Below, one piece after another: positions 1 to 63,489 of a DNA stretch of 64,000 bases; the first letter of the stretch is position 1, and every line of letters starts with the position of its first letter. The translations under genes were made by a program, and so were the position numbers. The stretch is from Marsupella aquatica (lineage: Eukaryota; Plantae; Marchantiophyta). The stretch spans positions 21,774,558 through 21,838,557 of the forward strand of contig OZ316895.1 of the NCBI GenBank assembly GCA_973895155.1, in the 5' to 3' direction. The notes beneath the pieces are model-generated. The model was not told the DNA's origin, searched no databases, and saw only the letters and a program-made list of their open reading frames with translations.

Positions 1-314
1 GGTCGGATTAGAATGGGATCGACTCATCAACCAGATATTTGCAGCTTGTGCCTCCATAGCAACCTCGAAAGTAAGTGTGAATGGGAGGTAGGCTGCCGAC
101 TGTAGTAATCAAAGCCCAGCTGATGGATTTCCCCTTCACCACGGGAGGATCGAAGGAGCCGGTCTTCTGGATTCACGCCCAACTTTCTGAGATGATGACT
201 CGAGGAGTAGCACCAGTATTTCCGGATAGGTAGAGCTCACCACGTCTAGATTTCCGGGCTCATGATCTGAATAGTTCATTCGCCGGAAACGTCTATCGAG
301 TTTGGCGGAAGCGA

Positions 315-35029: not shown

Positions 35030-35730
35030 CTGATAACTGCAAAGGCGTTCGGTTGCACTCATTTCGCACCTTTTGTACAAACAAGCCTCCACAACTTTAC
35101 AAGTGAAGGCCTTGATATCTGGACATAAATACTTAATTTTATAAGTGCACAATCCCATTGCGATTCAATTACTGATAAGTGCACTGCATCTTTAGTAGAG
35201 TAAAGTGCCATTCTGGGTGGGGACCCAATTTAGGACACGGATGTACATTTTAGGGTGCAAAGGCTGATAACTGCAAGGCCTCCTGTTCTTCCTTTTTCAT
35301 AGTGAGTTTGCGCACTCCTTTTGTACAGTGCAGTGCAAACAGGCCTCCACCACTTTATAGGCCAAATCCCTTGATAACTGTACATAAACATTCATTAATA
35401 AGGGCACAATCCCATCAATTTCGCTTACTGATAACTGCATGGCATTTCTAAATAAAGTAAAAATTGCACTTATGGGTTGGGAAGCCAATTAAGACAGGGA
35501 TTTACAGTTTAGGGTTCAAAACCCTGCTTACTGCAAGGTGTCCTGTTCTTCCTTTTTTCATAGGGAGTTTGCACTCCTTTAGCACCTTTTGCACAAAAAA
35601 GGCCTCAACAACATTAGAAGTGAGCCCTTGATAACTGTAGATGAACACTTCATTCCGGGTAAATTGCTTTTAGTAGAGTAGAAACTTGACTTATGGGTGG
35701 AACCCAGTTTTTGACAAGGATGTACACGGG
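35030..35730. repeat. ~240-bp diverged tandem repeat, ~3 copies (likely transposon subterminal region)
   Basis: Recurrent CTGATAACTGCAAGG, GCCTCCACAACTTTA, CCTTGATAACTG, GCACAATCCCAT and TGGGTGG.ACCCAATTT blocks. Confidence 0.7.
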
Positions 35731-36867
35731 CTTCTCTTCTTTTCAATCGGATCTACATGAGTCCTCTTGTTGAAATTGTATGGCCTTGTGCGCAGCATTC
35801 CCCTATCATTTACATTTGGATAGAGATCATCCCTATCCACCGACTCCATCCTCTCTGAACCTTCAACCAAAATGTCCGACAAAAATTTCCCATTTGCAAG
35901 TAGTTTTGTTGAATCAATTTGCCACCAAACCAAAGTAATTACTCCCCTATGGAAGTTGGGAAAGTATTGTGATTCCACCACATCTTTCACAGCAATCCCT
36001 ACATGGTCCTCACCAAGCATTTCATCGTCAACCGCCGCCGTTTCTTGAGGCACAGTGATGGTCCCCGTGGCAACCCTATTGGTTCGATCTGAACCGATGT
36101 ATAGTTCGACCAACTCTGACATCCAATTTGACCGTTGGAAATAGTCACAATTAGTTTTAGAAATTTCAGCTGAGGGAGACTCCACAACAAAACTCCGCTC
36201 TATGTTGATATCATCACCCGCATCCTTCTTTGAGAAACTCTTTCTACTTCGGACATCTGCCACGTCCCAGAGAACCCATGAGTCTTTTGCCTCGTCAATT
36301 GTTTCAGCCCCACTGTGTTTGTAAGGTAAAACCCTACTCCCATGAATGACATTAGTGACCCTCACACTGATCCGTGATTCACCAAGTAAAATGTTGTGAC
36401 ATCTTTCCATTGGATTTGTATTGAAAACAACTCCAAGGGCTACACAACACCCAAAGATGAACATTTCAACCTCATCCCCTTGCCTCGGAGTGGTCGATGA
36501 GTCCTCCTCTACAATTGGATTTTTCTCCAAATTACTCTCGGGTCTATTTGAACAACTACCTACACTAATGCGTTTTTGAGAATTTGTTGTCGTTAATAGA
36601 TATGCGCAAGACAAATCCCAAATAACGCAAGAATCAATGGCATCAAAAAGGTTTTCTGCCCGAGGCATCGGAAATGGTAGTTTTGTGGTTCGGTCAAAAA
36701 CTTTCTCAATGAGAACTCCCATTCGATTCTCTCTCAACAATATCTTTTGAACACTATCTTGCGGGTTGACTTTTTGAACTGTCTCGCTCGCAACATCGTA
36801 ACCATCATTTGTCAATATCATATTGTCTTCTCTCAAAAATATTTCGGTCATTCCTATAACGTATTCA
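35691..36867 (-). pseudogene. Transposon-associated gene exon with three tandem Tnp1/En-Spm-like (DUF8039-type) domains
   Basis: Three repeats of VA.G.V…P….H…LGE….V.V..V……LP…….T…A….V.W. A splice acceptor lies near 36868, and the reading frame runs out into the tandem repeat. Confidence 0.6.
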
Positions 36868-37042
36868 CCTGCACAATTTTAAATGTAAAGTATTAGTTAA
36901 GAATGGTCCCAACTAGGAAGCACATAGGTGTCAACCCTCTCCAAGGACAGTGCGCATATCGGGATTATCCCCATCAAGAAAAATAATAGGTCCCCCAAAA
37001 GTCCCTATCTAGCCCTAAGATCCCTGATCCCAATTTAGACGT

Positions 37043-39020
37043 CGGATAGGGATGATCCCTGTCCAAACGACGGATAGGGTCTGTCAGTGTCCAAACGGCG
37101 AACAAGGATCATCCCTGCCTAAACGGCGGATAGTGTCTGTCACTGTCCAAAAGGCGGACACGCCTGATCCCTGTCCAAATGGTGGATCGGGTCTATTCCC
37201 TGTCCAAACAACTGACAAGGATGATTCAAGGAAACTTTTCATATTGGGGTCCAATCAAGCAAATACCTCAAACGGCGGACAGGGATCATCCGGAGAACGA
37301 CCGCGGACACGGATCCCTATTGAAAGGGTAGACAGGGATCATCCCTATCAAAACGGCGGACAGGGACCATCCCTATCCAAACGGTGGACAGGGATCATCC
37401 CTATCCAAACAACGAATACGGATCATTATCCAACCAGAGGATCCAAACGGCGAATACGGATCATTATCCAACCAGAGGATCCAAACTGTAGAGGATCCAA
37501 TAAAGTGCTATAGTTCATATGGTCCTCTACAGTACTCTACGGTGGACAGGGATCATCCCTATCCAAACAGCAGATAGAGATGATCCCTATCCAGATAGCA
37601 AACAGGGATGACCCTTGTACGGACAATTGACTCTACACACTAATTTAATGTTTGAGCAAAGAACGGTTGGATTGAGATTATCCCAATCGTGAGTTGGGCT
37701 GGGATTTTTTCACTTCAACCTTAACTTAGATATAGTAATTCCTAAATTTGCGAATATCAATGGAATATGCTACAATTCTATAATTAGGTTTAAAGTTACC
37801 TATAATGGAAATGATTCTTGAACCCAAAACTCAATTTAGTTTATGTTGTCAAACCAAGGATTAAAATACTGTGTTGAAGGGGTAGTTATCAGTAACCAGG
37901 TAAACTAAATGCTTCAGGGGAGTGGAAGAAATTAAAACTAGATGTTCTGTCTGGAAAACAAGAGTGTCTCAATGGGGCTCCGTAATGAACTGACCTGGTT
38001 GAGGAACAGAACAAAAATCTAGAAATGAAAATACCAAATGAGGACCAGCCGGACAACCCCAAGTATCTTATACAAGTTGTTGAAGATCGCCCTTATGGAT
38101 AAGGCGATGCGTGATCAGCCTTAAGCAACGGCGAGTGGATTAGGTCGGGCGACGCACTTTAGGGCAGCCGTGCATTTAGGGTTTTCCACTCGCCTCGGCC
38201 TCCCACGTGTTCAGTGTGCCTTGCCTCGCCTCGGGGGGTAAAGGAGGCAGGAGGTCCCACTTGGGCCTCATTCTTCATTCCCTCCTCGCTCCTTGCTCGC
38301 TCTCCTCCCTCCTCCGTCCGCTCCTCCTCTTCTCCACTCTTGCTCTTGCGCTCCTTTGCTCGCTCCTCCGCCTCATTCGCTTCCAATCTCCTTCGCTCCG
38401 ACGCCTCTGCACTCCTTCGCTCTGCCTCCGCACTAAAGTTTATCCCCATAGCCGCCACGTTAATTGCCCTAGATCTAACGCTCTGCAATCCTCCACGTGT
38501 CCATAAGGCCACGTGTCACACGATGGAGCCATCCAGACCTATTCCAGTGTGTCTCGTCAGTGAGCCAACAGAGGAGACAGACCTCTCATCCATTGAGGAC
38601 ATGGTGGAGACGGCCCTCGAGGATTCCAGAGCCTTTCAATCGCTCAATCCAAGTGAGTATCCCAGTAACAAGTTGAATATTTGTATGGTGGACAGAGATG
38701 ATCCCTGTCCAAGTAGAGTCCAAATAGAAGATAGTCATCTTTATTAGACAGAGATGATCTCTATCCAAATGGATGGAGATCATCCCTGTCCAATTGCATA
38801 GATATCATTTATTTCCAAACTGACGATAGAGGATGTCCTATCAGACGATGCTGAGGACCTTTATTAGGAATTGGATAGAGATGATCCCTGTCCAAGTAGA
38901 GGATAGAGATGATAATAACGATCGTCAGTATCCTCTCATTGAACAGAGATGATCTTTATTACAAATTGGACAGAGATCATCGCTGTCCAAATAGAGGATA
39001 GAGATGATCCCTGTCCAATT
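37043..39020. repeat. Arrays of a 23-bp palindrome (consensus TGGACAGGGATNATCCCTGTCCA), ~28-bp period in 37043-37620; further copies at 38690-39020
   Basis: Examples: CGGATAGGGATGATCCCTGTCCA (37043), TGGACAGGGATCATCCCTATCCA (~37385, ~37543), TGGACAGAGATGATCCCTGTCCA (~38689). Dispersed copies also at ~40719, ~40797, ~40875 and ~43482. Confidence 0.9.
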
Positions 39021-42000
39021 TTTGTCAATTACAAAAGTAAGATTTCCAAACTAATATGCCTAGATGGGACTATTGCAGGGAGCTATCTAAATGCATTGAA
39101 ACCACAGATTTCAGACGCAGATTGCTCCGAGGGAGTCTTGTTGGAGCAGAGCAGAGAAGATTTTCGTTGGGGCCTTGAGTTCTCCAAAGTTGATTTTGAT
39201 TTCCTTAGCACGTCAACGAGACGGGATCCCATTTTGTGCATAAAGGTCAGAACTGTAGATCAGGAGACTCTTGTACTCGGACCTGTAGTCTTCATTGGAA
39301 TTGAAGGAAGAGGGTTTGTTTCCATCATTCTTGAGCTCCATAAAAGGATACGATGGGTTAAATTACATCTACCATCAAAGGCGTATTCTTCAGAATTCAA
39401 TGTTGAGTGGTCTGCAGCTGGAGAACTTGGCGTGTTGGCAATGGGCTTTTTCCCTAAGTCGAATTCAACTCAAAAGGTGACTGTTGGAGTGAAGGGGATT
39501 CTTCCACTTGACATCATGTATGGGTTTCAATATGTGAAGCTTAATATGCATAAACACCAAGGGAATTATACATTTCCGGTGACATGGATTTTAAATAATT
39601 TGCTTGACAAGGCAGGATTCCTATCATCGGAATCAGGTGTTTTCCTTGACAAGAAAATTATATTTGCGGAGGAGTTTGCAATGGATAATGCAAAAAAGTG
39701 GGTAGAATCATTACCCAAGCCTACAAGTGTTGCACTAGTAGTGGTGAACAAGCCTACAAATGTTGCACCAGTAGTGGTGAACAAGCCTCCAGTAGTTGTT
39801 AACAAAGAAGTTCCGAAGCCTAGAAAAATATCTCAGGAGACAACAACCGGGACTGCAGGAACAACGGCCGGGACAGCCTCCAAACAAGTGGTAGGGAAGC
39901 GAAGACAAAGAGAGAAGAAGGAGCGCAAGAAAACTGAGACACTGCCGAAGGAACCCGAGAAGAAGCCAGTAAAGAAGAAACATAAAACTGACAAGACTAT
40001 TGCGCGGTCAACTCCGACGGATGTACAGATGCTCCCAAAGGATGAGGGAGACAAACTTGATGCCACGGAGGAGAAGAAGGTCTTAGAAGGGAATGATGTT
40101 CTCCAAAGAATAGAGCAGTACTATACTTTTGGGATAAATGAAATATTTTCTATTCCAGTGGAGAAAATTTATCCAACTCCGGCAAGGTTATGTTACAGGA
40201 TGCTCAACAGTGCCCATGTGAAGCACATAGCCGAATCCATGGTGAAAAACCCTGGACATGAACCTCATGTTGCGGACCTTCTTCCTTACAATCCAAAACT
40301 TAGAAAGTTGCTTCATTTTGACAGCACGGAGAACGACCGCAAAGACCTTCTTGGAGGAGTGAAGAAAGGCAAGATTGTTTTCCTTGCCGTCAGTGGGCAA
40401 CATTCTGCTAGGGCGGGCAAATGGGTTCTTGAGTGGGCCAAAACTGATGCCAAGCTCACAGTTTTGGCAAAAAAGTTAAAATATAGGAAGGCTAGATTAT
40501 TGTCAGACCTTACGCCATCGGCTATACTGGTTGAGCACTCAATGAGATCAAATGCCATCAATTCTTCGATGGTGTTTCAATCGTGCTTCAAAGATACAAT
40601 TGTTCATGCAAGAAAACAATTCCTTGAAACTGGAAGACCAAGAAAGTCAAAGCACGGGGACAACAAATCAAACGCCCAAGAGAGTCAAAAATTTCAGGTG
40701 AGAAACATTTTTCTTGTTTGGACAGAGATGGTCTCTGTCCAAGAGTGTGACCGTCCGTTACATTGATTTTAGTTCAATATGTTTTTGGTTATGACTTGGA
40801 TGGAAATGGTCTCTGTCCAAGAGTGAGACCTTCCATTCTGTAGATTTTACTTCATTCTACTTTTGGTTATGGCTTGGACGGAGATGGTCTCTGTCCAAGC
40901 AAGCGATTGTGTGTTGTCAAATCTCATTGATTGTAGATAACTTACAATGTTCATTCTCCCTAATTTTTGATTGTAGGATTATCTGGCATTGGCAAGGATG
41001 ACCATGGGGAGAAAAGACTTGAAAATGTATACTGGTTACTTTTTGCCGAGAATGATCTTTTCGAGTTATGGCGGTAGTGTGCCAGATGTGGATTGATGGA
41101 AAACTTCCTGATGGGGCTGGTACACAGGGAAACAAAAGGTCCGAAAAGGCGATAACCGTCGCCATGTTTCGTTGTTTTGATGGTGAAATCTCAAATAGAG
41201 ATTTGACCAGAATTTTGAACAAGGTGAAGTCGGGTCAGATTTTATTGAAGAAAGATCCGACTAATAAGTCAGATGTTCCAGCGATGGAGGAGTTTGCAAA
41301 GGAGGTGAAGATATTGATCAAATTGAAGTCTCTTATTGGAGATTACTACTTCAAAAAGGATCCAAAACACTTCCCAGCAGATACTGATTGGGCTAAAGTG
41401 ATTGAAGTCCTCCCATTATTGGGTCCCGATTCGGAGTTGAACAGGTGCCGAAGAGCAGCTGGCGATGTATGGTTGACAAATTTGTTGAAGTCGAATCATA
41501 CAAAGGAGAGTGAGATATTGCCAATGACATTGGTGATGCGTCTAGATGATATTTACTGTCAAAAGTTTGGCGGTGGGACAAGTTCTCGAACCCAGCCGTG
41601 GGTCACATTTTTTAGTAACAACCTACTGAAGACTGTGGATCCGGAGTCGTTGGAAGAACAATCTCCAACATGCCCTCTTGCAATTGTTGATTTCAGCCGA
41701 CTTCAGCAAAAAGAGTGGACTGAAGTAGAGATTTTGGTCCTCTTCCAATATATAGTAGAGTTACCACGAAATCCTACCATTGTTGTGATGATAACTGTCC
41801 ATCCGGGTTATCTTGTACTGAATGTCCTAAGCGCTCTTCGTAAATTAGGACATTCAAAAACTCTGAGTATTCACATTGAGTATGGGAGTTATTACCGAGA
41901 TGATCAACCTCACCCTCAGGACTTATGTTGGAAGGGAGGAATAGAAGAGGTTATCTTTGCCGGAATTTCTTGCGAGGAGAACGTCAACTGGGATGAAGTG

Positions 42001-43302
42001 TACGGTACTGATTTCGTGGTTGAGAAGGTCAAGGGAAAGGGGAAGGCCAAGGACGCGGACGAGGAGTCATTGCATGAAGATCTAAAAAATATGATGACCC
42101 CAGAAGAGGCGGCAATCCTTCTGCACATGGCACCTCAATTTGAGACTGTCGGCGCTCGGGGTGGGTGGGTGAATCCTCACGCCAAACCCACACGGATGAT
42201 CCAAAAGATCATCCAAACACTGTCCGAGCCGGGGGATTTGATTCTTGACTTTTTCTCTGGCGGTCAAGTGATGAAGGCATCCCTTTTTTCTCAACGTGAA
42301 TGTTTTGTTTATTGTGACTCTCAACATGAGAGACATTTTGTGGAAGCATACGCTTCGTTCCTTTGTGAGAAGGTTCCCACCATCAAAGATCGTTATGATC
42401 GCTATGTCGGTGGAAGTTCTAGACATTGGGAACCCTCTTCTGCCGCTGTTGCTATTGAGGATGAATCAGATGGTGATCAAGAAGATGGAGCTGACCAATC
42501 AGTCAAAGACGATGGGCCATCAGAGGCATACGTGAAGAATTTGGATGACCGAGTTGGCGAGGGTGAAAATATTGACCTTGTGGACGACGATATGATTGTT
42601 GGATCTGCACCTTGTAGTTCACCAATTACAGATGCTGCCCCCATGGGCCCCAACAAGGGCCAATATAATGATAACTTGGATAGAGATGGTCTCCATCCAC
42701 AAGTGCCTGGACAAGAGATGGAAGTTGATACTTTTGAAAAACTTTCTTCAAACAACCTTCTCAATCAAGGTGCGGAGAGGCATGGTGAGTCCAATGAACT
42801 CGAAACATTGGGATTGAGACCACAGCCCATCCAAATAGCTGACATTCCCGTGAATGAAGCAAGTGCATCCACGACTGCTGACAACCAGGCAGGTGCTTCA
42901 ATTTGTCCCAATACACTCTTTTCCTCTTCTGATGACAAATTGGTGTTTGTTCGATCACAATCAAGAAGTCCCGTTATCCTTCCACTCTCAAAAAAGAAAG
43001 GGAAGAGAGTAGGATCAACTGGATATAAGTCACTTGAATATGATTGCCAATGTTACGTGTGGAAAAGTGGACCCGATGTAGGAACTGAAGTTGCGTTGGA
43101 TGCTGCTCAATCAATTTTGAACAATGACTCGTACAAAAAGCACAAGAAAGATCCAACTTATAGAAGTGGAGAATTGGGATTGATAACTCCGGTTTGGTCT
43201 GCACCTTATTGGGTAGAGGAGAGTACCTCCGATGTCAATTATGAGATCCAACAAGAACTCGGTGATGATATCTTGATTGATGAATATGGATCGCATTGTT
43301 AG
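38523..43302 (+). pseudogene. Three-exon gene for a ParB/Srx-like domain fused to a beta-class N6-adenine/N4-cytosine DNA methyltransferase-like domain (two apparent 1-nt frameshifts)
   Basis: Exons 38523-38652, 39079-40697 and 40977-43302 have GT/AG borders; the first junction is phase-consistent, and exon 3 needs two 1-nt corrections. ParB-like: SIPVEKIYP…RMLNSAHVKHIAESM…FLAVSGQHSARA. MTase-like: NPHAKPTRMIQKIIQTLSEPGDLILDFFSGG (motifs X/I), with motif IV position AIVDFSR. Lys-rich linker and acidic tail. Confidence 0.7.
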
Positions 43303-43457
43303 CCAAGGTCTAGATTGAGCGATGTGACCTTATCAATTTGATATAATATAGTCTGTATAATTATACTTCAAGTTTAACAATTAGAGCATCAGTATCAATA
43401 TCCATCTCCTCTTTACGGTTTCTCAATGAATCTGATCAGTATGCAGATATATTTTCT

Positions 43458-44593
43458 TTGTGGTTGGCCACTTGTGTTGGATTGACAGAGATGATCTCTA
43501 TCCAAACTTCAAATGTGGTTTTATCTCTAAGATTGGTATTTGTTGCACTTGCAAAACCAAGACCTTGTTCCATCAAACGCAAATTGTTGATTTTGGATCT
43601 TAACAAAATACTTTGGGATTCAGTTGAATTCCAAAGCAAGGGCAAATCTAGAAATGTTGTGATCCCAAGTGGAGTGCATTGGGATAGAAAAAATGGAATT
43701 AGTTGCATGTACACAGAAAGGCCAGGCTCCATGAGTTTCTAAAGTTGGTTTTTGACCGATTTGACATTGCAATTTGGACATGTGCTTGGGTACATCGAAC
43801 AGTGAAAATGCTGAACATGATGTTCACTGCTGAGGAGCGGTTGAAACTTAAGTTTGTATTCACACAAGTGGAAGCCTTTGACACGGGCATTCAAATGCGT
43901 GACATTACAAACGGAAAGGCAAATGTGCTACTGAAGGATTTTTGGGTGGTATGGAGTGGATTTGGAAATCTATATGATGAAACCAACACCCTCCTTGTGG
44001 ATGACTCCCCCCTTAAGGCATTTGCCAACCCAAGCATGACCGGACTATTTCCAGTGCCCTACACGCATGCCAATGGTGGAGATAATTTTCTTCTAACAAT
44101 TCTTTGGCCTTGTCTTGAGAAACTATCCCATGCAAGTGACATTAGATGTTATCTTCTTCTTAACTCTCCACTGTGGTCTCTATTGCACATAAAGAGAGAC
44201 AAGGTAAAAAATGAAATTACTTATGATCAACTTAGTAAGAGATGTGCAACAAAAATTTGGAAATCACAGTTTACGCATAGTGTGTTGGACCTCAATAGCA
44301 ATGAGATTCCTTGGAACGTGAAGCATCGTATATGTAGTTTACGTCCTGAGGCAGAACTTGATGATGCACTTGTCACGTCACTTGCTAAAGCATTTGTAGG
44401 AAGGGACTATTCAGGTCCGCATAGAGAAAATCCCAGACACTTTTTGCGGGAGATTATAGCCATTAGAAATAACACCACCAAGTTTCAGCTCCCTGAAGAT
44501 AAAGGGACTTGCAAGGTCCGTGACACTAGGGTAGATAGTAAAGGAGACAGGGGCACGTGCTCAAATACACATTGTAAGGAGCACTTTGTTTAG
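43458..44593 (+). pseudogene. FCP1/NIF-type HAD phosphatase domain gene with one frameshift at ~43725
   Basis: KLLILDLNKILWD (motif I), YTERPG/LHEFLKLVFDRFDIAIWT, LLKD and NTLLVDDSPLKAFANP, split over ORFs 43458-43742 and 43703-44593. The true start is uncertain. Confidence 0.8.
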
Positions 44594-45069
44594 AGATATG
44601 ACTCATGTTAAGCCCCTTAGATAGAAGAAATACATTGTAAATTTGGAGATAATTGTATATTATTTTATAATCTATTTGGAGTTATGTCATTTTGTTCACA
44701 CATATTCAAGGGTTTATTTGTGCTGAAATGTTTTTATAAGTATGATCTCTATCCTACTATTCTTTGTGAATTCATAAATAATGATCTCTATCCTATTATT
44801 CTTTGTGAATGAATAAATGATATAATATGTATTATTTATTAATATAATACTTATATGATTTGGCCTATAAAGTGTACATTTAGAGACCAAAAAGTGTACA
44901 TTTGGGTTTCTTAAAGTATATATTTGGGGACATGAAAGTGTACATTTCAACACTGATTTGTGAACAAAAGAAAATACACCTTTAATGAATAGGCTGATTT
45001 TTTGGATTTCATAGTGCAACCATTTTTGAAATATGACTGTGAATGATTGATATTTATTACAGGTTACCC

Positions 45070-48000
45070 ATGCCTCTCATTCGAAGAAGCCTCCGAGATG
45101 AACAAATGCTCGCTAGAGCCAAGGGGCAAAGGAACAGACGTGCAAGGATAATTAATGAGCCTGAATTTGGGCCTCTTATGACACGACATGGGTCTACCTC
45201 TAGGGATGAAGCAAATTTATTTTCTTCTCATAAACCATGAGTAAAATTTAATTCTACTTTGAAATGTAAATAACATTTTATGTTGTTTATTGTTCTCCAC
45301 TAGGGAACCATCTCACAATGAAGATGATATAGTGCCTCCACAAATTACGATCAACCCACCACGCCGTCGCACAAGTCGTGTTCCACATCTGCCAACTATG
45401 TATGTTGAGAACTCTTGAATTTTACAGTTCAAACTTCTACTTTGTTAAAGTTTATTGTTGGACTGTTTATTAGATCTAATAGTTTATTATTTAGAGGATT
45501 TGACAGGATTTTGAGTGATTGGTTATTTAAAAGAAACGGGAGATAATGGGCTTATCCTTGGTTTTGATTGGTTTTTCAGCAACCTAGCACGTTGCCGCAT
45601 ATTTGATGTGTATCATGTGTTTCAGCATACTTGAAACTTGAAACTACGAGGTCAAACAAATCAAGAGAGTGGTCACCATTACCTTGGACGCATAAATGTG
45701 GTGTGCCCATCATGTAAAGCCTTGCACTGGACAGCAGAGAAGGTGAGTTCTACAAATTTTAAGGACTCTCCATTTGGCAAGTGTTGTAGTCATGGTAGGG
45801 TGGATTTACCACCATTGCGATCTCTTCCTCCATTATTGGCAACATTGGTCTCCGGTGAGGGACCAACAAGTAAAAAGTTCTTGAGTCATATTCGAGCTTA
45901 TAACTCAGCACGTACTTCAGCTTGCATCCACCGGTGCTAACATGTCCGGAGAAGTACATGGCGGCATAAAACATCTTCGCATTCAAGGTGGGATATATCA
46001 TTCTATTGGCCCTCTTTATCCTGAGGTAGGACAACCCCCAAAATTTGCTCAACTTTACATTTATGTCACTGAGCACGAGATCATAGAAAATAGAGGTAGG
46101 GTAATTACTGATGGTATTGAGATTGAGACCTTGAGAGGATTACAAAATCTTATGCGTGAGCATAATGCATATGTGCGATCTTTTCAAGCTATAGCATGTG
46201 AAGTTGGTAGTCAAAATGTGCGCATAGTATTGAAAGCTAGCGAAAGAGATCTTGATGCTAGACGTTATAACTTGCCAGTAGCATCGGAGGTCGCAACCAT
46301 TATTCCTGGAGATGGAAGTGAGGAGGTTGGTCCACGTGATATCATTGTATACTTGCATGGAGGAGGGGTACGTCGTATATCTAATCTCAATCAGGCATAT
46401 ATTCCTTTGCATTTTGTTCTGCTATTTCCATATGGTGAGGCAGGATGACATATAGGCATTCGAAAATGGAATTCTTCTATATTAGAAGAGACTATTGCTA
46501 TGGAAAGTGAAGAGGGTGTGGTGGAGAATATTATTCACGAGAGGGCCTATGACAATGTCATGGATAATGATGCACATGCAGATACAGGGACAAAGAATGT
46601 TATCCCTTTGGAGTTTGCCTCATTTAGGCTTCATACACGACAAGATAATCCTATAGAGTGCATGGATGGTAGTAGGCTGACACGTTTTGATAGGCTTTAC
46701 CAGGAGTACATGGTGGATGTTTATGCCACTATTGAGAGCCAGAGGTTGACCTATATACGTACCCATCAACCTCAGTTAAGAGCGCATCTATATCAGGGGG
46801 TTCAAGATGCCATGACAAGACATGATCATGCAGTAGATATTGGAAGACGCATCATATTACCTTCGAGCTTTATAGGAGGTCCACGTCATATGCACCAATT
46901 ATTTAAGGATGCCATGACTATTGTTAGGCATTTTGGCAAGCCTGATTATTTTTTGACAATGACATGCAATCCTACATGGAAGGAGATCACGGATGAGTTG
47001 GTATGTAGCAACCAAAAAGCAGCTAATCGTTCAGACTTGATTGCTCAGGTGTTTGAACAAAAGAAGAAGACATTGCTAGATCTGCTAAAAAATCAAAAGA
47101 TTTTGGGTAATTGTGTGGCAAAGATACATACTATAGAATTTCAAAAAAGAGGTTTGCCACACATTCATCTTTTGATGTGCATGAGTTATGAGGACAAACC
47201 ACGAAATGCTACCCAGATTGATGATGTTATTTTGGCGGAGATACCAGATCCTATTTTGCATCCAAGTCTTTATCAAACTGTGGTTACTTGCATGATGCAT
47301 GGACAATGTGGTGCCCAAATGAGAAATGCTCCATGCATGAAAAATGGAGTGTGCTCAAAATGTTTTCCAAAACCTTTTGCCTCCCACACCACATTCAACG
47401 AGGATGGATACCCGATATATCGCAGGTGCGTTGATTTCAATTACTTATATACCATGCTTTCATGTACTTATATTATATTTATATGTGTATATAATTATAT
47501 TTACCTATGATATTTTCTTGCTTTAAACACTGCAAACGAGATGATGGTTTTATGGTGAAGAAGAAAAACTGTTTCTTGGACAATCGTTGGGTGGTGCCGT
47601 ACAATAAATTACTATGCACACTTTTTGATTGTCACATAAATCTTGAAGTTACAAGTGGCATTGCTGCTGTGAAGTATATTTATAAATATGTGTACAAGGG
47701 ATCCGACGCAATTTTGGTCTGATTGTCACGAGCTGGTGGCACAATTGAGACAGGGGCACCAGTAGATGAGGTCTCAGAATATCGAGATGCATGGTATTTA
47801 TTTCATTTCATATTTCTATTCTGTTTTTTACTAATTCATTAATCAATTTCAAGTTTTGCAATAATGTGAATTTCAAGTTTTGCAATAATGTGAATTGACT
47901 TAAGAGTTTTTGTACAATTGTTATTTGATTCTATTTGAAGATTTTTCAAATCATACTAATATTTTTGTTTGTAGATACATCTCATCTGTTGAAGCATGTT

Positions 48001-51000
48001 GACACATTTTCAAGTTTCGTTTGCATTCGGAAGAGCCAAGTATTGTTCGATTAACTGTTCATCTTGAGAATGAGCAAAGTATTGTTTTTAGTGAGAACGT
48101 AACAACCGAGGATATTTTACAACGGAGGGTGGCAACCACATTGACAGAATGATTTGTAACGAATGTTAGTGATCCTGGGGCACGACAATATAAATACCAT
48201 GAGTTTCCACTTCATTATAGTTGGAACAAGAACAACAAAAAAATGGATTCTCCGTAAGAAAAAGATTAAAGGCTGCGGATACCCCATTGGCCGTTTATAT
48301 TTGACTCATCCAGGTATTATTTTTTTCTTGACTTAATTGCACTCAAATAATTGAATTTATTATTATTATATTCAAAATATTCATTTTAATGAATTTTTGT
48401 TGTGCAAGTGAAGGAGAACGTCATTGGATGTGGTTACTTCTTCATCATATTAAAGGGGCTATTGGATATGACAGTTCGAAAACAATTGGTAATGTAACCA
48501 TGCCCACTTTTAAGGAGGTAGCAATTAAGTTGGGACTCTTGGAAGATGATTTAGAGGTTATTGATTGTTTGAGGGAATGTTCAGAGATTCGGATTGGACG
48601 TGCAGTCCGTCAACTTTTTGCCATCATTCTTCTCTACAACACACCTGCACGCCCTAAAGAGTTATGGGATCAATTTATATCATCCATGACAGAGGATCTA
48701 CTGTATTTAAGACGTCAGGTATTCTTTTCTACACAAATCCATTTCTTTACTCACGAGGCATAACTTCTAATAAAATGATTTAATGCGCTACATTCATCTT
48801 GCAAACTAACATTGGTCAACCACATTGTATTTGTAGGAATTTGGAATGTCTGATCTTCCTCAACATGCTGTTATCAATAATGCATTGTTGGAAATTGACC
48901 GTTATTTACAAGATAACAACAAATGATTGTCCCATTTTTCTGATATATATCAAGCAAATTTTATTTGCAATGAAGAGGCTCATTCTCATTTGGAGTTAGA
49001 GGAACTCTCATATGATCGTGTTACACTACGTGCATGTGCATTGGAAGGAGAAGAAAAACTAAATGATGGACAAAATTTAATTTGGCAACAAGTGAATGAT
49101 GTTTGTGAGACCGTATTGCAAGGTGAATCTCCTCGGGTAAGTATATACATTACCTTTCCATATAGCTTTGCAACATGATTATGAGATGTTTTATTTTGAC
49201 ACTATGAATAATTTTCATGTCGATAACTCAAGGTTTTCGTTTTATCTAGGAGCATCTATTCTTTATTGATGGACCAGGTAGATCTGGAAATACATTTTTG
49301 TATAATCTTCTATTAGCAAGGGTCAGATGTGAGGGGCACATTGCTCTTGCCGTGGCATCATCAGGGATTGCAGCCTTACTATTACAGGGAGGTTGCACAG
49401 CACATTCACGATTCAAGATTCCACTCATTGTTCACGAAAGCTTTACTTGCAAGTAAGAAGTTAAAATTGTGTTTATAGTGAGATTGAGTTCATAAAAAAT
49501 ACTAATTTATAGATATTGAGCTATTGGTTTAGAGATATAGTACAAATGGTATTTTTTCATATTTTTTTTGTGATGATAATGTGCAGCATAGTAATGGAGA
49601 GTGAAGCCACACGCTTGATCCGATGCGCATTATTGATCATATGGGATGAAGCACCCATGACTCATAGACATGCCTTTGAGGCTGTTAGCCGGACACTTCA
49701 AGATATCATGAAGAGTAACTTGCCGTTTGGAGGAAAATTGATGGTCTTTGGTGGTGATTTTCGCCAAGTGCTTCCTGTACCCTAGGCCCTCAGTCTTAAC
49801 TAATATGTGGAGGACGTGCGAACGCTCAAAGGGTAGTTTTTATTAATTTTGAACTAATAATTATAATTATTACCGGTAATAAGGGAACTTTTAATAGTAA
49901 AATGGAAATAACAAGGGGTAAACAGGAAAAGGGCCCGATCGTAGGGGGTCCACTTCTTTTACATAGAGTGAGGGCCCAGGGTTCCTGTAGTTCGGCATGG
50001 AGATCAAGCGGCCATCATTCGAGCCACCTTCAAAAGATCTTCTATATGGTCAAAGATAAAAGTGATGAGGCTAAGTGAGAACATGAGAGTAAAAACACTA
50101 GAAGGTATGTTATATTATCAAGAATTCTTTTTTAATTTTATACTAGGTGTGTTATGATATTTATAGAGTATCATTTTCACTATTTAGTTTATGAAATGTT
50201 AATTTATCTTAGCACCAACCTTTCCATGGTGGAATAAGTAAATATATTTTTCTTTAATATTTGCTTCAAAAAAATCTGACAACCTTTCTGGATTTTCGTA
50301 TATGTAGGAGAAGAGGCGCTTGAGCAACAAGGCTTTAGCGATTGGTTACTAGCAATTGGAGAGGGAACTTTGCCAACTGAGTCTGATTTGGGTGATGATG
50401 TCATTCGTTTGCCATATGACCTGATAATGCCAACTGACCATCTTAGTGACCTAATTGTTGAGATCTATGGCTCAGATCCAGTGAACTTCAACAATGCTAA
50501 CTTTTTAAAAGATAGAGCTATTTTGACCACCACAAACAAAGATGTGGATAAGGTCAATGAGGAGGTGATGCGTGGCTTTCCTGGAGAGGTAAATCCCTTA
50601 CCACTAGCAACTTGAAGAGCTTTCAATTTTATCTTTGAAGGAAAAACATTTCAATGAAAGTTAGTAACTTTCTAATTTTTATCCATGGAGTTTTGCAGGA
50701 GCATGAGTTTTTGAGTGCAGATTCAATTCCCAATGAAGCAACTCCCTTCATGTATCCCACAAAATTCCTCAATACATTGTTGCCATCTGGTTTACCTCCA
50801 CATAAGTTGACTCTGAAGATTGGTGCACCCATCATGCTTTTGAGAAACATGAATGGGTCAAGAGGACAAGCTAATGGCACTCGCTTGATAGTTCGTGGTT
50901 TTGGGCGTCATGTCATAGATGCAGAGATCATCATAGGGAAGAATATCGGAGACCGTGTTTTCATTCCACACATTCCTCTTATTGCATCTGACTCAGGGTT

Positions 51001-51256
51001 ACCATTTGATCTTCGTCGATTTCAGTTTCCTATTCGTGCTGCCTTTGGTATGACCATCAATAAGTCTCAAGGTCAAACCTTGGCAAAGATTGGGATATTT
51101 CTACCAAACCCAGTTTTCTCGCATGGTCAATTATATGTGGCATTGTCTAGGGTTGGTGCTCGGATTGGTATTCGCATTATGATAGCACGGAATGCATATC
51201 CCAATAAGGATGACCTTTACACAAGGAATGTTGTATACCGGGAGATTTTAAGATGA
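45070..51256 (+). pseudogene. Helitron RepHel (HUH Rep + PIF1-like SF1 helicase), intron-containing, inactivated
   Basis: Zn region CPSCKALHW…CC; Rep motifs YFLTMTCNP, EFQKRGLPHIHLL, KYIYKYVYKG; helicase motifs FIDGPGRSGNTF (mutated Walker A), IIWDEAPM, GGDFRQVLP, MTINKSQGQTL, HGQLYVALSRV; in-frame stops at 46446, 48000, 48150; MITE insertion. Confidence 0.95.
49780..49981. mobile_element. 202-bp MITE with 17-bp TIRs and 8-bp TSD inserted in the Helitron helicase exon
   Basis: TIRs CCCTAGGCCCTCAGTCT / AGAGTGAGGGCCCAGGG (15/17); TSD TTCCTGTA at 49772-49779 and 49982-49989; removal restores GGDFRQVLPV-VRHGDQAAII. Confidence 0.9.
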
Positions 51257-52006
51257 TTGTGTGATCATTGGAGGGTGCGTTTCCATCAAGCTCTTGGTAA
51301 CACTGGCACGAGCCCGTGCATTGATAGAACGGCTTCTCTACTCCGAGCTTCAATAATCAATTGTTTCAATATTTGACAGGTAAATATTCCTTCCACATTC
51401 ATTCAATTCAATACTAACTTGACCCTTTTTTGATAACATGATTGGATCTTCTTAGCACTTGGAATCTTTTTGAAGAGGGTTATATTGCTTACTCCACTCT
51501 CTTTATATTCCATCATTCTAGATGTATTCAATCTATTGTAGTTGATTTCCTCCTATGAAGGTTCTTTTGGCTTCTTCTTTTGGGTGTTTTTGCAGTTGTA
51601 GTTTGGGTTGCTTGGTTGGTTCCACACTCCAAGCAAATGGAGCACTTCTAGATATTCAAGCAGATGTGTAGTCTACAATGGACTATTTCATGGTGGCTGT
51701 CATATGACATTATTGTTTTATGTCATGTTGACATCTACAAGCCATCTAACATACCTTATGTTCAGATTTCCACCATTTGAATAAAATTTAGGGTTTTCCC
51801 CCACTTGAACCATTTTACCATCAAGTTTTGAGTCTTGGTGGAAAAATTTCTCAAGTGAGGTTTCCCTTTGCCTTTTGATACACTATTCTTATTATTTTCT
51901 CAAATCTATTTTGTCTCAAGCACTTTTTGGTCCTCATCGCTATTGACGTTCAAAGAGCGGGTAGTCGGAGCTAGTTTGTGTTAAGGGCAAGCAGACTATC
52001 AACAGT

Positions 52007-52530
52007 CTACCACTGCTTAAGTACAGCCTGGAGTTGGTGAAGAGCACTACTCAATTGTCTTTGCTTCTTCTCTGATTGGCAGACGTCAATCATAGCCCTA
52101 AGATGTGTTTCAGTTTGACGCAGGACAACCCACCCTCGGAGTTGACCCAGAAACTGAGAGTATGTAGCATCATTTAGTTCTTTCCAAATGCTTGAGCACA
52201 TCTCCATAATCAAAACCATGGGGTCAGATTTCCTTTTGTGCATCTGCACAGCAGTAATGACAGCTTTGTGCAAAGATATCCCTGTGGAGTATTCCATGCC
52301 TTAGCTTGATGAATGCAAAAGACTCTAAAAAGTCCCTTAGTAAATTCAACCATACATTTACCCCCAAAACTCCTACAGCAATCATATTTGGACATGTGGA
52401 CCAATCCGGTGGTGACACATGGCGAGCCTATATTACAAACCCTTGTACACTATGACTTGGCACACATTTTTAAGAACCTCTACATTCATTATAACCCAGC
52501 ACTTCATTAAACAGAGCCTTCTTAGAATTT
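52007..52530 (-). mobile_element. Decayed L1/Tx1-like LINE ORF2 C-terminal fragment
   Basis: SSIWKELND resembles the IWKERN motif that follows the zf-RVT region; Cys/His/Trp-rich broken frames lie upstream. Confidence 0.4.
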
Positions 52531-54008: not shown

Positions 54009-54386
54009 AATTATTTTACTCGGGCATCAGGCTGTAATTGGTCGTGGTTCAAGCAGAAATACAGGCTGCTCTGCTTTCGATCTCTGGCCATGTAGCGTTG
54101 GTCCCTGTACATACAGTATCCCCCAACCTACGATGGTAAGTCCTTTCATTTCAAAGGTTGATCGCTTGATTAACTGAATTGTAAAATTAAGGCAAGGAGA
54201 TGGTGAAAAGCTACAGATGTCTCTTGTACGTTCAACTTTCAATCAGATAATTTCGCAATCTCGAGTTGTAGACATTATGATCGAGAAATTAATTTTGATT
54301 TTGACATTATTGAATCAATTCTCGAGCAGCCTGTATTTCTGCTTGAACCACGACCAATTACAGCCTGATGCCCGAGTAAAATAATT
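54009..54386. repeat. Perfect 63-bp inverted repeat around a 252-bp spacer
   Basis: 54009-54071 AATTATTTTACTCGGGCATCAGG…ACAGGCTGCTC is the exact reverse complement of 54324-54386. Confidence 0.9.
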
Positions 54387-55212
54387 ACCTTGATTTTGAC
54401 ATTATTTCTCTATCGATAATTTCGCAATCTCGAGTTGTAGACATAAGTTGTGAAAAGATTAAGGGAGACAAGTCCTGGAAGTGCATTCAATAATGTCAAA
54501 ATCCAAATTTTCCATGCACGGCTGTAGACACAAAAATCGCTGATTTTGATCGAGAATATTCATTAATGTCAAAATCAAAAACTTCCGTCTGTTCAAGAAA
54601 CTCTTAGGATGATTGGGTGACGGAGAGTTTTAAAACTTCATGGTTTCGTCATGGAATCTGAAAATGTTTGACGCATTGGAATGCTCTTTCCTAAAAAGTC
54701 CTAACCGTTCCTTACACTAAGCTTGCATTGAGATAAATTCCAAATCGTTTCCTCTCCACGAAATAGCTAAATTTTCACTTAACAACAGAGAGATTCAAAA
54801 TTCGATGTTAGACTGGTTGGAACATCTGTCGAAGGCTCCTAGCTGTTCTATGCACGAAACTGTTCACTGTGAGGTGTTGAGCTTCGCCGTTCATCCTTGT
54901 TCTATACTCTTCTTACTGCCACTGTGTCCGCTTGCTCTCTGTATAGGTGTTATCTAAGCAGGCACTGTATATTTGTGTTTACCGTTAGATTTAGGGTTAA
55001 TCCTGCTTACGGTCAGATTAGCATTCTCTTATTCTGGTGCGGAGCATTTCCTCGCCGTCCTATTCTTAAGGTCCTTCCCACTGTTCATTTGAATATCTTG
55101 CTAATTTTACTACGAAAACTGTTGGCGACGAGTTTCTTCATGGTATCAGAGCAATTGCTGCCAGGACACGATCGTGGTGAGAATTTCCCATCGGTCCTCG
55201 TGTGCTGAGCAG

Positions 55213-58200
55213 ATGGCTGGCGGCCCACAGCGATCATCGCAGAGCAGCGGCTCCCAAGCTGTTTCTCCAGGTAGCAGTACCCAGCAAGCATCGCCAAGTA
55301 CTGGACCTCCTGCAACGCAGAATGTCCACTACGAGTTTGATAAAGGCCTCGTCTATGCAGACAAGGACAAGCTCGACGGCAGCAAAAATTTCATTGGATG
55401 GTCATTCAAGGTGGAGCGACAGTTCCGCAAAGATAAGGTATGGTTCGAGCTGGTCAGTCCCGACCCAACGAAGCCAATGCAGCTCACGCCTGAGCAAATC
55501 GAAGAGAAGAAGGAAAGAGCAATATACATTTTTTCGCAGACGGTCAAGGATCACATCTTCCCCATCGTGAAGAAGTACATCGACGATCCTGCCAAAATAT
55601 GGCAGCAACTGAAATCACGTTTTGAATCTGCAGCTATGGGTAAGCAGCTCATCCTCAGGGAGAAACTGTCAAGGATGCACATGTCTGAAGGGAGCAGCGT
55701 TGAGGAGTACATCCGTGAGATTGACAACTTGGTAATGCAGCTTGGTGACATCAATTTCATCATCGAGGATAAGGAACTCATTCGCACTACTCTGAAAGGA
55801 TTACCTGATAGCTGGAAACCATTTATCATGTCATTTGGCACCTTGCTGCACCAATTCCCGATGCTGTCATTCTCTGACCTCATTGGTCACCTTGAGGCCA
55901 AAGAAATGCAGCGGGCCTTACAGAACAACGACACCGAAGAAGCACTTGTGACTAGCCACAACACCCATCGAGGTGGCTCATCCCATGGACGAGGCAGAGG
56001 CAAAAACAACTATCGTGGACGGGGATGAAGCGCACCTTCTTCAGCCCCCAGGAAGAACGAAACCTGCAACTTCTGTGGTCATGCTGGCCATTGGGAAGGA
56101 GAATGCCTCAAGAAGATAGAGAGCCAGATCAAGGGCCTACAAATCAAGCATGCGGACATCAAGAAGGGCATGCACCATGCAAATGTAGCAAAGACAGTGG
56201 AACCTGAAGAATGTGAGTCTGACAGCGATCCTGACAAAAGTATCTTAGAAGTTAATCTCACAGAATTCAGAGCTAGTCACGATTGGCTAGTTGACTTAGG
56301 AGCTAGTACTCATGTAACTGGGAACAAGAGTACCCTTAGTCACGTTGTTACACACGCATCTGTCTCCAATGTAACAACTGCCTCTGGTGCACGCATTCCA
56401 GTGGCTGGAAGAGGCAGCACGAAGTTCAATGGAAATAAAGTGGTCAAAAAGATTTTGTACGTGCCTGGTATGACTCGAAACCTCTTGTCAGTGGGTCAGT
56501 TAGCTGATGAAGGCCATAATGTATTGTTTAATTCTCATCACTGCTACGTGTTGGATAAAGAAGATCCTAATAAGATCTTTCTGAGGGCAACTAGGGATAG
56601 TCATAACAGTCTATACCGCCTTGACTCGTCCATTCAGGGCAATGCCAGGCTGTGCTCTGAAATATATCTTTCATTAGGTGACAGCAACGACAAGCATGTT
56701 GGCAGTCCTCCATCCAACCCACATACGAGCAATACTGAAGGTGAGACACAAAGCAACGTGTCATCACTTGAGCTATGGCACCGAAGGCTCAGTCACATCA
56801 ATGTTCACAGAGTTCACAATATGTCTTCGAACGAGTTGGCTGAAGGCATGCCCAAGATAGCTCTGGAGGATCATGTGTGTGACACATGCATCATGGGGAA
56901 ACAACATCGAGAGCGCATCCCCAAGAAATCTGCCAACAGGTCAACCAAACCACTGCAACTAATTCATACGGATCTATGTGGCCCCTTTGTTGTTTCATCT
57001 CTCTCTAAAGCAAAATACTTACTTACGTTCACAGATGATTTCTCGCGATACACTTGGGTGTATCTCTTGAAAGCTAAAAGTGAAACCTTCTCAAAGTTCA
57101 AAGAGTTTAAAGCTATGGTCGAAAATGAATTCGACAGCAAAATACGGTGTGTCCGATCTGACCGAGGAGGTGAATACTTGTCAAACGAATTCTGTCAATT
57201 CTGTGACAGACAGGGGATCAAAAGACAACTCACAGCGGCTCGAACACCTCAACAAAATGGAGTAGCAGAAAGGAAGAACCGGACCCTGCTGGAAGCAGCA
57301 CGCAGCGCCCACATTGCAAGCGGAGCTCCCACATTCCTATGGGATGAGCTCATTCAATCTGCCGCATATGTGCTCAACAGGTGTGACACTGCATCTCTGA
57401 TCCACTCCACGCCCTTTCAGCAACTATACAATGCCAAGCCTGACTTGTCTAGACTCCGTATTATTGGGTGTTTGGCATACGTTCATGTCCCTAGCAAACT
57501 AAGACACAAGCTGGCAGCCAAGTCCATTCGTACTGCTTTAGTAGGATACGATGAGAGATCAAAAGCATACAGGTGTTATGATCCCATCAAAAGGAAAATC
57601 TATATCAGTCGAGATGTTGTGTTTAATGAGTTGAAGATGTTTGACTTTAACATCAAAACATCTCAAGCCAATACAGAATCACCACTGATTCTACCAGGTC
57701 AGTTCACATCTATCTCCCCTGTAATACAGGAACAAAACTCCCACTCTGCATCTGAACCCGTCTCTTCTGACTCCATGCCCATTAATCTTGACAATAGTGC
57801 TGACCCTAACCTTGAAGCAATTGGTCCGGTTAACTCCTCTCCTGAGGTCGCACCCACATCAACATTGCCATCTCCAATCCGCAGGCAATCATCTCGTGCA
57901 AGGGAGCTCCCAGTTCGCCTGCGTCAAGACTACGTGTTGGATTTTCGACCCAGCAACCCTGATGTCTGCCTCGTCGAGACTACCGACTATGTGGATGAAA
58001 ACATCACATTCCAGCAAGCAAGGTTGGATCCTCAATGGAATGCAGCTATGAAAGAGGAATTTGAATCTTTGATTGAAAATGAGACATGGATTCTCACTGC
58101 ACTCCCACCAGGAAAGTAGGCTATTTCTTCCAGATGGCTGTACAGGGCTAAACCTGAAGTAAACCCCACTCGCACCCGGTTGAAAGCTCGACTGGTGGCT

Positions 58201-59485
58201 CGTGGTATTGAGCAGCGCGCTGGAGTTGATTTTGAGGACACCTTTGCACCGGTGGTCAAGTGGTCTACGATTCGACTCGTTATTGCACTAGCTGCAGCTC
58301 TTGGCTGGTCTATCAGCCAAATGGACGTCATCACTGCATTCTTGAATGGCAAACTCAAGGAGCTAATCTACATGGTGCAACCGCCAGGCTTTGAGGTCCC
58401 AGGATCCGAACATCTTGTACGTGCCAGCTAAATCGATCCATCTATGGCTTAAAGCAATCCCCGCGTGCATGGTATGAGGAAGTCGATCGCTTCCTTTGCT
58501 CCAAAGGCTGGACCCGGAGCACTGCAGACCATAATTTGTATTTCATCAACGAAGGGGGGAAAATTGTCCTTCTGCTTCTTTTCGTTGCTTCTCATCATCG
58601 TTGATGACTTACTTATTGCCGACTTACTCATCGTTGATGAAATACAAATTATGGTCTGCAGCATCATCTGATACACTGTCACCCGATGTGGATATCACTC
58701 ACTACTGCAAGTTAGTAGGCAAATTAATCTACCTTACCAATACCAGACCAGATCTGGCGTATGCTGTGGGGATTCTCAGCAGATTTATGTCATCCCCACA
58801 ACAAAAACACATGGATGCTGCAAGGCATGTTCTCAGATACATTAAATCCACCATCGACTTGGGATTACTCTTCCAGAGAACTGGAACATTGTCTCTCTCA
58901 GGCTACACTAACTCAGACCATGCTGCATGTAAAGACACTCGAAGGTCTATTGGGGCATATGTGTTCCAATTTGCTAGGGGCACTGTTACTTGGTCAAGCA
59001 AACGACAAGCAACAGTCTCTCAGAGCACCACCGAAGCTGAATACAGAGCCCTATCAGAAGGAGCTCGAGAAGCTGTCTTCCTTCGGCGCCTGCTCACAGA
59101 GCTGAGTTTCATCCCAGAAATTCAAGTGGCACTGAATTGCCATAATCGGGAGGTAATGTCAAATCTATCGGTGGCTAGTCAACCCACCTTGCAAGATGCT
59201 CATTTGAACCTACACTGCGACAATCAAGGTTCAATTAATTTGGCGAAGAACCCCATTTTCCATGCTAGGACCAAGCATATCGAACTCCAACACCACTACA
59301 TCAGGGAAAGAGTCTTGGAAGGAGAAGTGACACTCAATTATATTCCTACTGCAGAGCAACCTGCAGACATCCTTACAAAATCCCTTCCAAGATGGAAGTT
59401 CGAGAAACATCGTGAATTTCTTGGCATGAAGTCCCTGCGAGACATTCTACCTACCCTGGGTAATGCAGCTACTCAGGATGCGTAG
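55213..59485 (+). pseudogene. Copia gag-pol (Gag, zinc knuckle, protease, integrase, RT, RNase H) with nonsense codons and an RT deletion
   Basis: CNFCGHAGHWEGEC; WLVDLGASTHV; WHRRLSH…CDTC; IHTDLCGP, RSDRGGEY, QQNGVAERKNR; [19 protein letters not shown]; TEAEYRAL, HARTKHIE, ADILTKSL; stops at 56026 and 58117; frameshift/deletion at ~58420-58660. Confidence 0.95.
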
Positions 59486-61853: not shown

Positions 61854-62756
61854 CTAGTGGTCTACATCAAGTGTCGAAACTAGATCGGCAAGTGGGACAG
61901 GAATGTCCTCTAGGGGGGCTAGCCGCTGCGGAGTCACACTAGCACCCACTGTCAGAGATCGACGATAGACGGCCCGAGCTTGAGCACGCTGTAAGGTGAC
62001 TGAAATGCGTTGGCGAAAGTGCGTGGTGAAAACAGATAGCGGGGGCCCGGTGGGACCCATCCGGCCGTGAACATCCCGAGCAGCTTGGCGAAGAAGCCCG
62101 TCGAACTGATGATGGAGACGCCCAAATATCTCAAGAGCAAGGGGCAGGAAGCTATCAGATGAAGCACGTGCAGCATATTTGGCCTCCTTCGTTGTTGCTG
62201 CTCGTGATGCTGCTGCCCCTGCCGTTGTTGCCGCTGTCCCAATGATGTCTTGGCGCAATGGGTTTGCCACCACTACATCTGCCAAAGTACGGTGACCGTC
62301 ACGGACCATGGTAAGATCCACCCGTAACCGCTGTGATGGAGGACCAGGTAACTCGAGCACCACCTCCCGCCGCGCGCAGACCAAAGCGCCAGAGAGAACC
62401 TGAGCAGTCGCATCTCTCACAGCGTCGTGAACAAAAATGGTTTCGCCGCCCAAACTGCATCGAAGAAGATGGACACCTGTGGCATCACAAGGCTTCCCAC
62501 AAGTGCAAGTAGGAGGCAAACCAGCAAGAAGTGGGTGGGGCAAGCCCATACGAAGACGCATGGCTGTCGCAAACTCCGCTGAAGACATCCGCAGGTGAGG
62601 AATGACTGGATTGGCCTGAAGCCAGCCTCCTGCGCCCTTCCCTCCGGAAGAAAGAATCCGAGCTCGGTCCGTGTCAGGTGCCTCGGTGAGGATGCTGGAA
62701 AGGGTGAAAGCGTGCATACGCCCAGCAAGGTCTGCCTGAAGACGGACGGGGTCCAA
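61854..62756 (-). mobile_element. 5'-truncated RLE-type (CRE/R2-like) non-LTR retrotransposon: CCHC zinc finger + restriction-like endonuclease
   Basis: AGGWL.A.P…F..AMRLRMG; CTCG…HLLRC; HDAVRD; RVDL…LADVVVANP; KEAKY; FLPLALEIFGRL; RQRISVTLQRAQA. No RT domain is present. The 3' UTR contains a ~46-bp duplication (61705-61798). Confidence 0.85.
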
Positions 62757-63489
62757 GGATAAAAACTATAATACAAGGTTGCGCCTTTTTATGCAGTGGT
62801 CGTCATTCAAAAATACAGTGCCAAGAAAAGAAATAACCAATAAATAGAAGGGATAAAACCAAAAGAAATTAAATACAGTGTGAACCAAAAAGTACAGTAA
62901 ATCTTTTCACACAAACAGTAATCAATTGGTGTACACAAAAAACAAAAAATGTAACTAACCCCTTTTCACACAAAAAAGAATCTAATGGTGGGAACAAAAG
63001 ACAAAAATGTACCTAACCCAGTTGTATGCAAGAGTATCATAAGTGATATACCATATCCTCTAAAAATGGATATGGTATTATTTACAAACTCAAGAAAAAA
63101 TGGGAACAATCCTAGGTCTTAAGTAAAAATTTGTTTTTCTGTAAATGTAGGATCCATCCATATCTCTATTAATCTGGATTACCTCTGCCCAAGCTACCCA
63201 TAACCTACCTCAACCCAACCAAGATAAAAAATAAAAAATTGAATATTATTAAAAAATAATTATTCAAATTGAGACTTAAAGAATTGGATAAGAACTTTAA
63301 AGTTTGAAAAAACTTGAGTATTAATAATGTATATATGATATTAATTTCTCTAAAATTTTAAAATTTAAAATAATTTTTTCTATCACTTGGTTGTGCTTGG
63401 ACTCTATGTTGCCGTGACTATTATCTCAGCCTCCGATTTCTATGTGCAGTGCACGAGTTGTTGCACACCATCACAACAACTCTACCTTG

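Follow-up and report, generated by a model that had tools for sequence, protein, structure and literature searches.

The stretch analysed here (the window) is 64,000 nt of the liverwort Marsupella aquatica, positions 21,774,558 to 21,838,557 of contig OZ316895.1. At 38523–43302 on the forward strand, it carries a spliced gene whose product is predicted to hold a ParB/Srx fold and a β-class amino-methyltransferase (MTase) fold in one chain. A first-pass annotation made from the letters alone had described a three-exon fusion gene of this kind, linked to a Helitron. On re-reading the window sequence, all the motifs it named were found where it placed them, and both introns are of the GT..AG type, giving 4,090 nt of coding sequence (1,363 codons, counting two frame breaks). 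Exon 1 (38523–38652) is placed by splice signals and phase (an ATG, a GT donor, phase 1) and has no homologue match among the family proteins. Exon 2 (39064–40697), defined by homologues, the structure model and fold searches, encodes an N-terminal β domain with a weak PH/PTB-like fold, a Lys-rich linker and the ParB/Srx-fold domain (approximately 40070–40690). Exon 3 (40977–43302) continues with a helical domain to about 41580, the MTase fold (approximately 41580–42400), an acidic disordered linker and a conserved C-terminal domain of about 130 residues (42900–43302; YVWKSG, IDEYGS), which is kept in the non-Riccia branch. Fold searches, confined for these two domains to a 748-residue model, gave no clear match to the helical or the C-terminal domain, and the C-terminal domain also matched no family.

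The ParB and MTase parts form a true fusion in one gene. The exon 2/3 junction (KFQ/DY) is spanned by the Calypogeia fissa proteins P0012 and P0002, and in one metagenome locus (L001) this position likewise holds an intron. Both parts are covered by 7 of 166 proteins, and a single open reading frame (ORF) of 1,009 residues (P0167) contains the ParB, helical, MTase and C-terminal domains. Close to the junction position of the profile, 32 of the 166 proteins end and 31 begin, as expected of ORFs split by a conserved intron. The window copy itself is broken by two 1-nt frame breaks in exon 3 (near 41021 and 41074); the extra base at both is also present in contigs from all four sequencing runs compared. 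Among 40 of the 2,152 variants, thirteen fall on exon positions, nine altering the residue and four not; so small and selected a sample gives no test of decay.

The ParB/Srx-like core proposed for exon 2 was recovered by the structure model and by fold searches, the support being of fold; the model (pLDDT about 90 for both this and the N-terminal domain) predicts the nucleotide-binding fold of the superfamily, with an insertion of about 30 residues as compared to ParB, Noc, KorB and Srx. The ParB part of the window protein had no match in Pfam, PHROG, NCBIfam or PADLOC, a search of PDB sequences by means of the ParB alignment brought up no relevant entry, and a ParB profile compared with seven phage and plasmid ParBs reached a probability of 0.3% (E 0.21). 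The domain contains IPVEKIYP (40152–40175) and SGQHSARA (40392–40415), of which SGQHS (40392–40406) is the ParB box. Among 47 aligned rows, the G is kept in 44, the Q in 45 and the H in 46, and the last position is S in 45, L in 2 and R in none. The GxxR arginine of the ParB CTPase clamp is therefore missing throughout the family. In a non-significant profile alignment, SGQHS lines up with SGHRR of phage ParB, so that the Ser would be equivalent to the CTP-binding Arg of Caulobacter ParB, which is required for CTP binding according to PMC8367383. Other residues near the box are well kept (an upstream Arg in 44 of 48 rows, a downstream Asn in 42 of 47). The region of the exon 2/3 junction was considered as a helix-turn-helix (HTH) of the ParB kind and found no support, as its hhalign score of 9.5 against a seven-sequence template lies within the range of 20 shuffles (5.7–11.6).

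For the MTase part, a permuted Rossmann fold was recovered, with the motif IV strand preceding motifs X and I, which upholds the β-class assignment. The window protein matches PF01555 above chance (E 2.9e-6), its 27.8 bits exceeding the cut-off of 26.7. In the model, residues 176–450 align with residues 3–260 of CcrM, 212 residues superposing at 3.6 Å; motifs X and I lie at 373–403 and the DF strand at 208–213. Motif X (NPHAKP, 42172–42189) and motif I (LDFFSGG, 42244–42264) together span 42172–42264, and the conserved DFFSGG is one residue shorter than the FxGxG-type DFFAGSG of M.RsrI. Motif IV was placed by topology: in the model, its Asp closes the second strand of the core, in AIVDFSR (41680–41700), and a conserved Trp follows (41680–41724 in all). 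In a profile–profile alignment, motif IV was left unplaced and the N-terminal half of the MTase scored no better than chance. Across 55 aligned rows, which include near-duplicates, the Asp is invariant (55/55); the next residue is F or L, the one after it T, S or G, and the third R or H. The Trp nine residues beyond it is found in 52 rows and the motif X Lys in 53. PP[YF] occurs at this position in none of the 55 rows, nor does the SPPY of DN4MT1 and N4CMT, and [DNS]PP[YFW] is absent from the whole of at least 171 stored homologues, fragments included. The reading of DFSR as the mark of one dead copy is to be corrected: the non-canonical motif is a property of the whole family.

Since both folds are without their usual catalytic motifs family-wide, the protein is likely to bind DNA rather than methylate it. 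We consider it somewhat probable that a liverwort DNA transposon carries the gene as an accessory and that its product is a non-catalytic DNA-binding protein, not a methylase. The absence of PP[YF] and the missing ParB-box Arg likewise make it less likely that the element marks its own DNA, as had been suggested. The main rival is that intact copies are active MTases with a non-canonical strand-4 motif (D-F/L-S/T-R/H), writing N6-methyladenine (6mA) or N4-methylcytosine (4mC), or acting on RNA or another acceptor, and guided to the element by the ParB-like domain. It is kept alive by the conservation of the Asp, Trp, Lys and DFFSGG from Calypogeia to Riccia and by the full β-class topology; moreover, section 8 of PMC4738411 reports permuted clades of eukaryotes in which the strand-4 motif is unusual, and a bacterial 4mC enzyme is already in use in a liverwort, as described in the portion of 10.1101/2021.02.12.428880 consulted. 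All 55 rows, however, lack not only the PP but also an aromatic residue at the fourth position, motif I is short, the six β-order phage MTases compared all have DPPY, and the neighbouring ParB and HAD folds are likewise without canonical motifs. On this evidence, an active enzyme is rather unlikely.

The HAD fold is that of a NIF/FCP1-like ORF at 43500–44593 on the forward strand (PF03031, 6.2e-8; one frame break near 43724), which sits between the ParB-MTase gene and a Helitron RepHel gene. The canonical NIF/FCP1 motif is DxD. The window ORF has DLN, and six relatives in which the motif was found, of nine examined, have DVE or DTE; none has DxD. With the changes in the ParB box, in MTase motifs IV and I and in the NIF motif, three enzyme folds have altered motifs. 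The Riccia models P0015, P0018 and P0021 run from the MTase into a NIF/FCP1 domain that is 36–38% identical to the window ORF, placed 0.4 kb past the ParB-MTase gene, which indicates that the two travel together.

An imperfect palindrome of 25 bp, of the type TTGGAYAGRGATSATCYCTRTCCAA, is dispersed over 35814–43505 and is dense at 37040–37600 and in both introns. Seven copies are self-complementary at 18–22 of 25 positions. Within the window, matches to the palindrome matrix are confined to 35814–44758, including one weak match at 44732; 10 shuffles gave 0–2 matches. Repeats of 39 bp, each holding half a palindrome, and of 22 bp lie at 44742–44947, just before RepHel and near a step in depth. 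On the reverse strand, a divergent ORF (35691–36878) with high depth contains three degenerate repeats of about 80 residues; out of 1000 shuffles, 0, 0 and 13 came up to the three repeat pairs. It has no match in Pfam, PHROG or NCBIfam; we take its repeats to resemble a domain found at the C-terminus of CACTA TnpA-type proteins, a likeness confirmed by no library. A tandem repeat of 259 bp (35053–35654, 2.3 copies, low depth) borders the repeat block on its left.

RepHel (45059–51256, forward strand; HUH motif at 47157) is a multi-exon gene broken by stops and by a miniature inverted-repeat transposable element (MITE). It matches PF14214 (4.6e-54) and PF21530 (1.3e-18) and begins about 1.8 kb past the stop codon of the ParB-MTase gene and 0.5 kb past the NIF ORF. 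The MITE (49780–49981, 202 bp, presumably hAT-like) has terminal inverted repeats, an 8-bp target duplication (TTCCTGTA) and very high depth, and is missing from other copies. Depth here is that of summed contigs at least 85% alike, in 664-bp bins, and does not give copy numbers. It starts to exceed that of the flank at about 35.76 kb and is near flank level again only outside approximately 35.76–52.1 kb, so that RepHel, with its HUH and Pif1 parts, lies in the same repeat block as the ParB-MTase gene. Relative to the left flank, the depth of the gene is 40, 588, 412 and 101 times in runs X1, X2, X3 and X5, and that of RepHel is 16, 197, 48 and 14 times, the ratios being 2.6, 3.0, 8.7 and 7.3, with the step in the 44789–45452 bin.

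The claim of a Helitron link therefore stands as adjacency to a broken RepHel in one repeated block; enclosure of the gene by Helitron ends is only a possibility, weakened by the depth step, the palindromes that cease before RepHel, the lack of a 5' end and the absence of a match to the window RepHel in all 171 homologues. The carrier was weighed on an axis separate from that of function. It may be the adjacent Helitron: the module would then be its true cargo, in one element of about 16 kb (35.7–51.7 kb), and the excess copies would either be derivatives without autonomy or partner RepHel genes that have diverged further. The common strand, the closeness of RepHel behind the module and the lack of a low-copy bin between them (at bin resolution, which also limits the boundary) agree with this. 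So does a candidate 3' end 0.4 kb past RepHel (51608–51651, forward strand), where a hairpin with an 8-bp stem lies 11 nt ahead of CTAG (at 51648). Its energy of -7.3 kcal/mol is the best of 10 CTRR sites in 51250–52260 and at the 1st–5th percentile among 833 CTRR sites in the window. This CTAG, however, is followed by A and not T, no 5' TC end was found, and the left edge of the block cuts the divergent ORF; these points weigh against true cargo, as do those named above. Alternatively, the module may come from a different DNA transposon, either CACTA-like or unclassified, that is without its transposase here, the Helitron being a separate neighbour. The depth step near 45 kb would be explained, and the 22-bp and 39-bp tandem repeats together with TAGTG at 45012 would fit a subterminal region. 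Yet TAGTG occurs 13 times in 33–56 kb, no transposase domain is found in the Pfam matches of the homologues scanned, no transposase ORF was noticed in the window, and the divergent ORF is without a family match.

Word-based protein searches found 6, 4 and 5 relatives, and a two-domain profile search found 377 representatives at E≤0.001 and 271 at E≤1e-10, 150 of them being listed. Organism names, given for a minority of the records, are only those of two liverworts, Calypogeia fissa and Riccia sorocarpa. Pattern matches in viral contigs (0/87 and 0/66) and in prokaryote genomes (0/30) included no close relatives, these being exact-pattern scans that are blind to distant kin; a metagenome pattern scan gave one relative among 42 matches, on a 1.8-kb contig. 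A quick tree of 38 of the 55 alignment rows (<25% gaps) is poorly resolved. Four relatives (P0036, P0058, P0064 and P0146, P0064 being a Riccia sorocarpa model) contain [AV]RTKQT..K..GGK/VGK, in three of them at or near the N-terminus; we take this to resemble the histone H3 tail. The gene is a multi-copy repeat: its depth is 40–590 times that of the flank, and there are many divergent copies per genome in both Riccia and Calypogeia. A domesticated single-copy host gene lying among transposons by chance would account for the splicing, the conserved intron position and the long conservation of the folds. The depth, the divergent copies and the broken frame of the window copy largely refute it at this locus, where it is very improbable; some relatives could be domesticated.

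If the protein is a DNA-binding one, both folds would be derived from prokaryotic or phage genes and retained as binding surfaces. The protein may use the 25-bp palindromes within the element as loading sites, as ParB uses parS, and then cover the element or give it order, either for transposition or as a defence against silencing; the NIF/FCP1-like partner would belong to the same module. A bolder and improbable version is a prokaryote-derived ParB–parS-like system in which the ParB-fold protein sits on the internal palindromes and brings a β-class MTase, whose active site would have a new chemistry in which the Asp stays and PPY is replaced, to write 6mA or 4mC on the element; in some lineages a mimic of the histone H3 tail and a CTD (C-terminal domain)-phosphatase-like domain would be added, making a self-addressed counter-silencing module. 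Either way, prokaryote-type ParB and amino-MTase folds are added to land-plant repeats, in a lineage that domesticated a bacterial 4mC enzyme, and the fusion protein and palindrome form a testable protein–site pair. An active enzyme would mean a new active-site variant and a DNA mark written by a transposon; an inactive one would mean that liverwort lineages far apart have retained two enzyme folds as modules for binding.

The window further contains an ORF with an AIG1/MMR_HSR1-type GTPase domain (234–1889, forward strand), a perfect 63-bp inverted repeat (54009–54071 and 54324–54386, spacer 252 nt), a Copia gag-pol retrotransposon interrupted by stops (55105–59485, forward strand) and a 303-residue ORF (61854–62765, reverse strand) without a Pfam match that, judged by eye, resembles the C-terminal portion of some retroelement protein.

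A large family of prokaryote-type ParB and amino-MTase folds in land-plant repeats is apparently undescribed so far. Full-text literature searches, whose coverage leaves out most subscription papers, found no description of such a fusion, nor do the parts of PMC12344493 and PMC12885004 available; the passages of PMC4738411 consulted, section 8 among them, list no such fusion in a land-plant transposon. The family shares its fold, permuted order and motif X–I sequence with the β-class MTases M.RsrI, CcrM, M.MboIIA and M.PvuII (PF01555). It differs from them in having no [DNS]PP[YF] and a motif I one residue short, in the position of the MTase behind ParB and helical domains, and in being spliced and part of a eukaryotic repeat. 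DN4MT1a/b of Marchantia and N4CMT of bdelloids belong to the host's genes, have SPPY and are of demonstrated 4mC activity (10.1101/2021.02.12.428880; PMC8885841, both in the parts consulted), whereas the window family is multi-copy, without SPPY and with a ParB fold; DN4MT1 is set apart by its description. With ParB, Noc, KorB, Srx and the DndB-type DGQHR proteins it has the fold and the G-Q-H box in common (a weak DndB match, E 0.031, in 3 of 55 members), but it has Ser for the box Arg, the insertion and no detected HTH. DUF3723, an auxiliary gene of fungal Starships, is offered as a lead only: Atlas feature neighbours score 0.94–0.95, and two clusters carry DUF3723 on 31% and 98% of their members, while the PF12520 hidden Markov model has no match in the family. 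The portion of 10.1101/2021.12.13.472469 consulted describes DUF3723 as conserved cargo and mentions no MTase fusion; a link would bear on an unexplained cargo gene. As reported in PMC4738411, the MTases of DIRS1 retrotransposons are likely inactive, a chlorophyte Dam is fused to ParB-HTH, and a haptophyte clade comes from phage ParB loci. The DIRS1 enzyme resembles the window family as a transposon-borne, likely inactive amino-MTase, and the chlorophyte Dam and phage fusions resemble it in pairing a ParB-type domain with an MTase, although DIRS1 and chlorophyte Dam are group-2 MTases, unlike the window family. The phage fusion L002 has the same ParB-MTase pairing; unlike the window family, it has motif I before motif IV and keeps SGHRR and DPPY intact.
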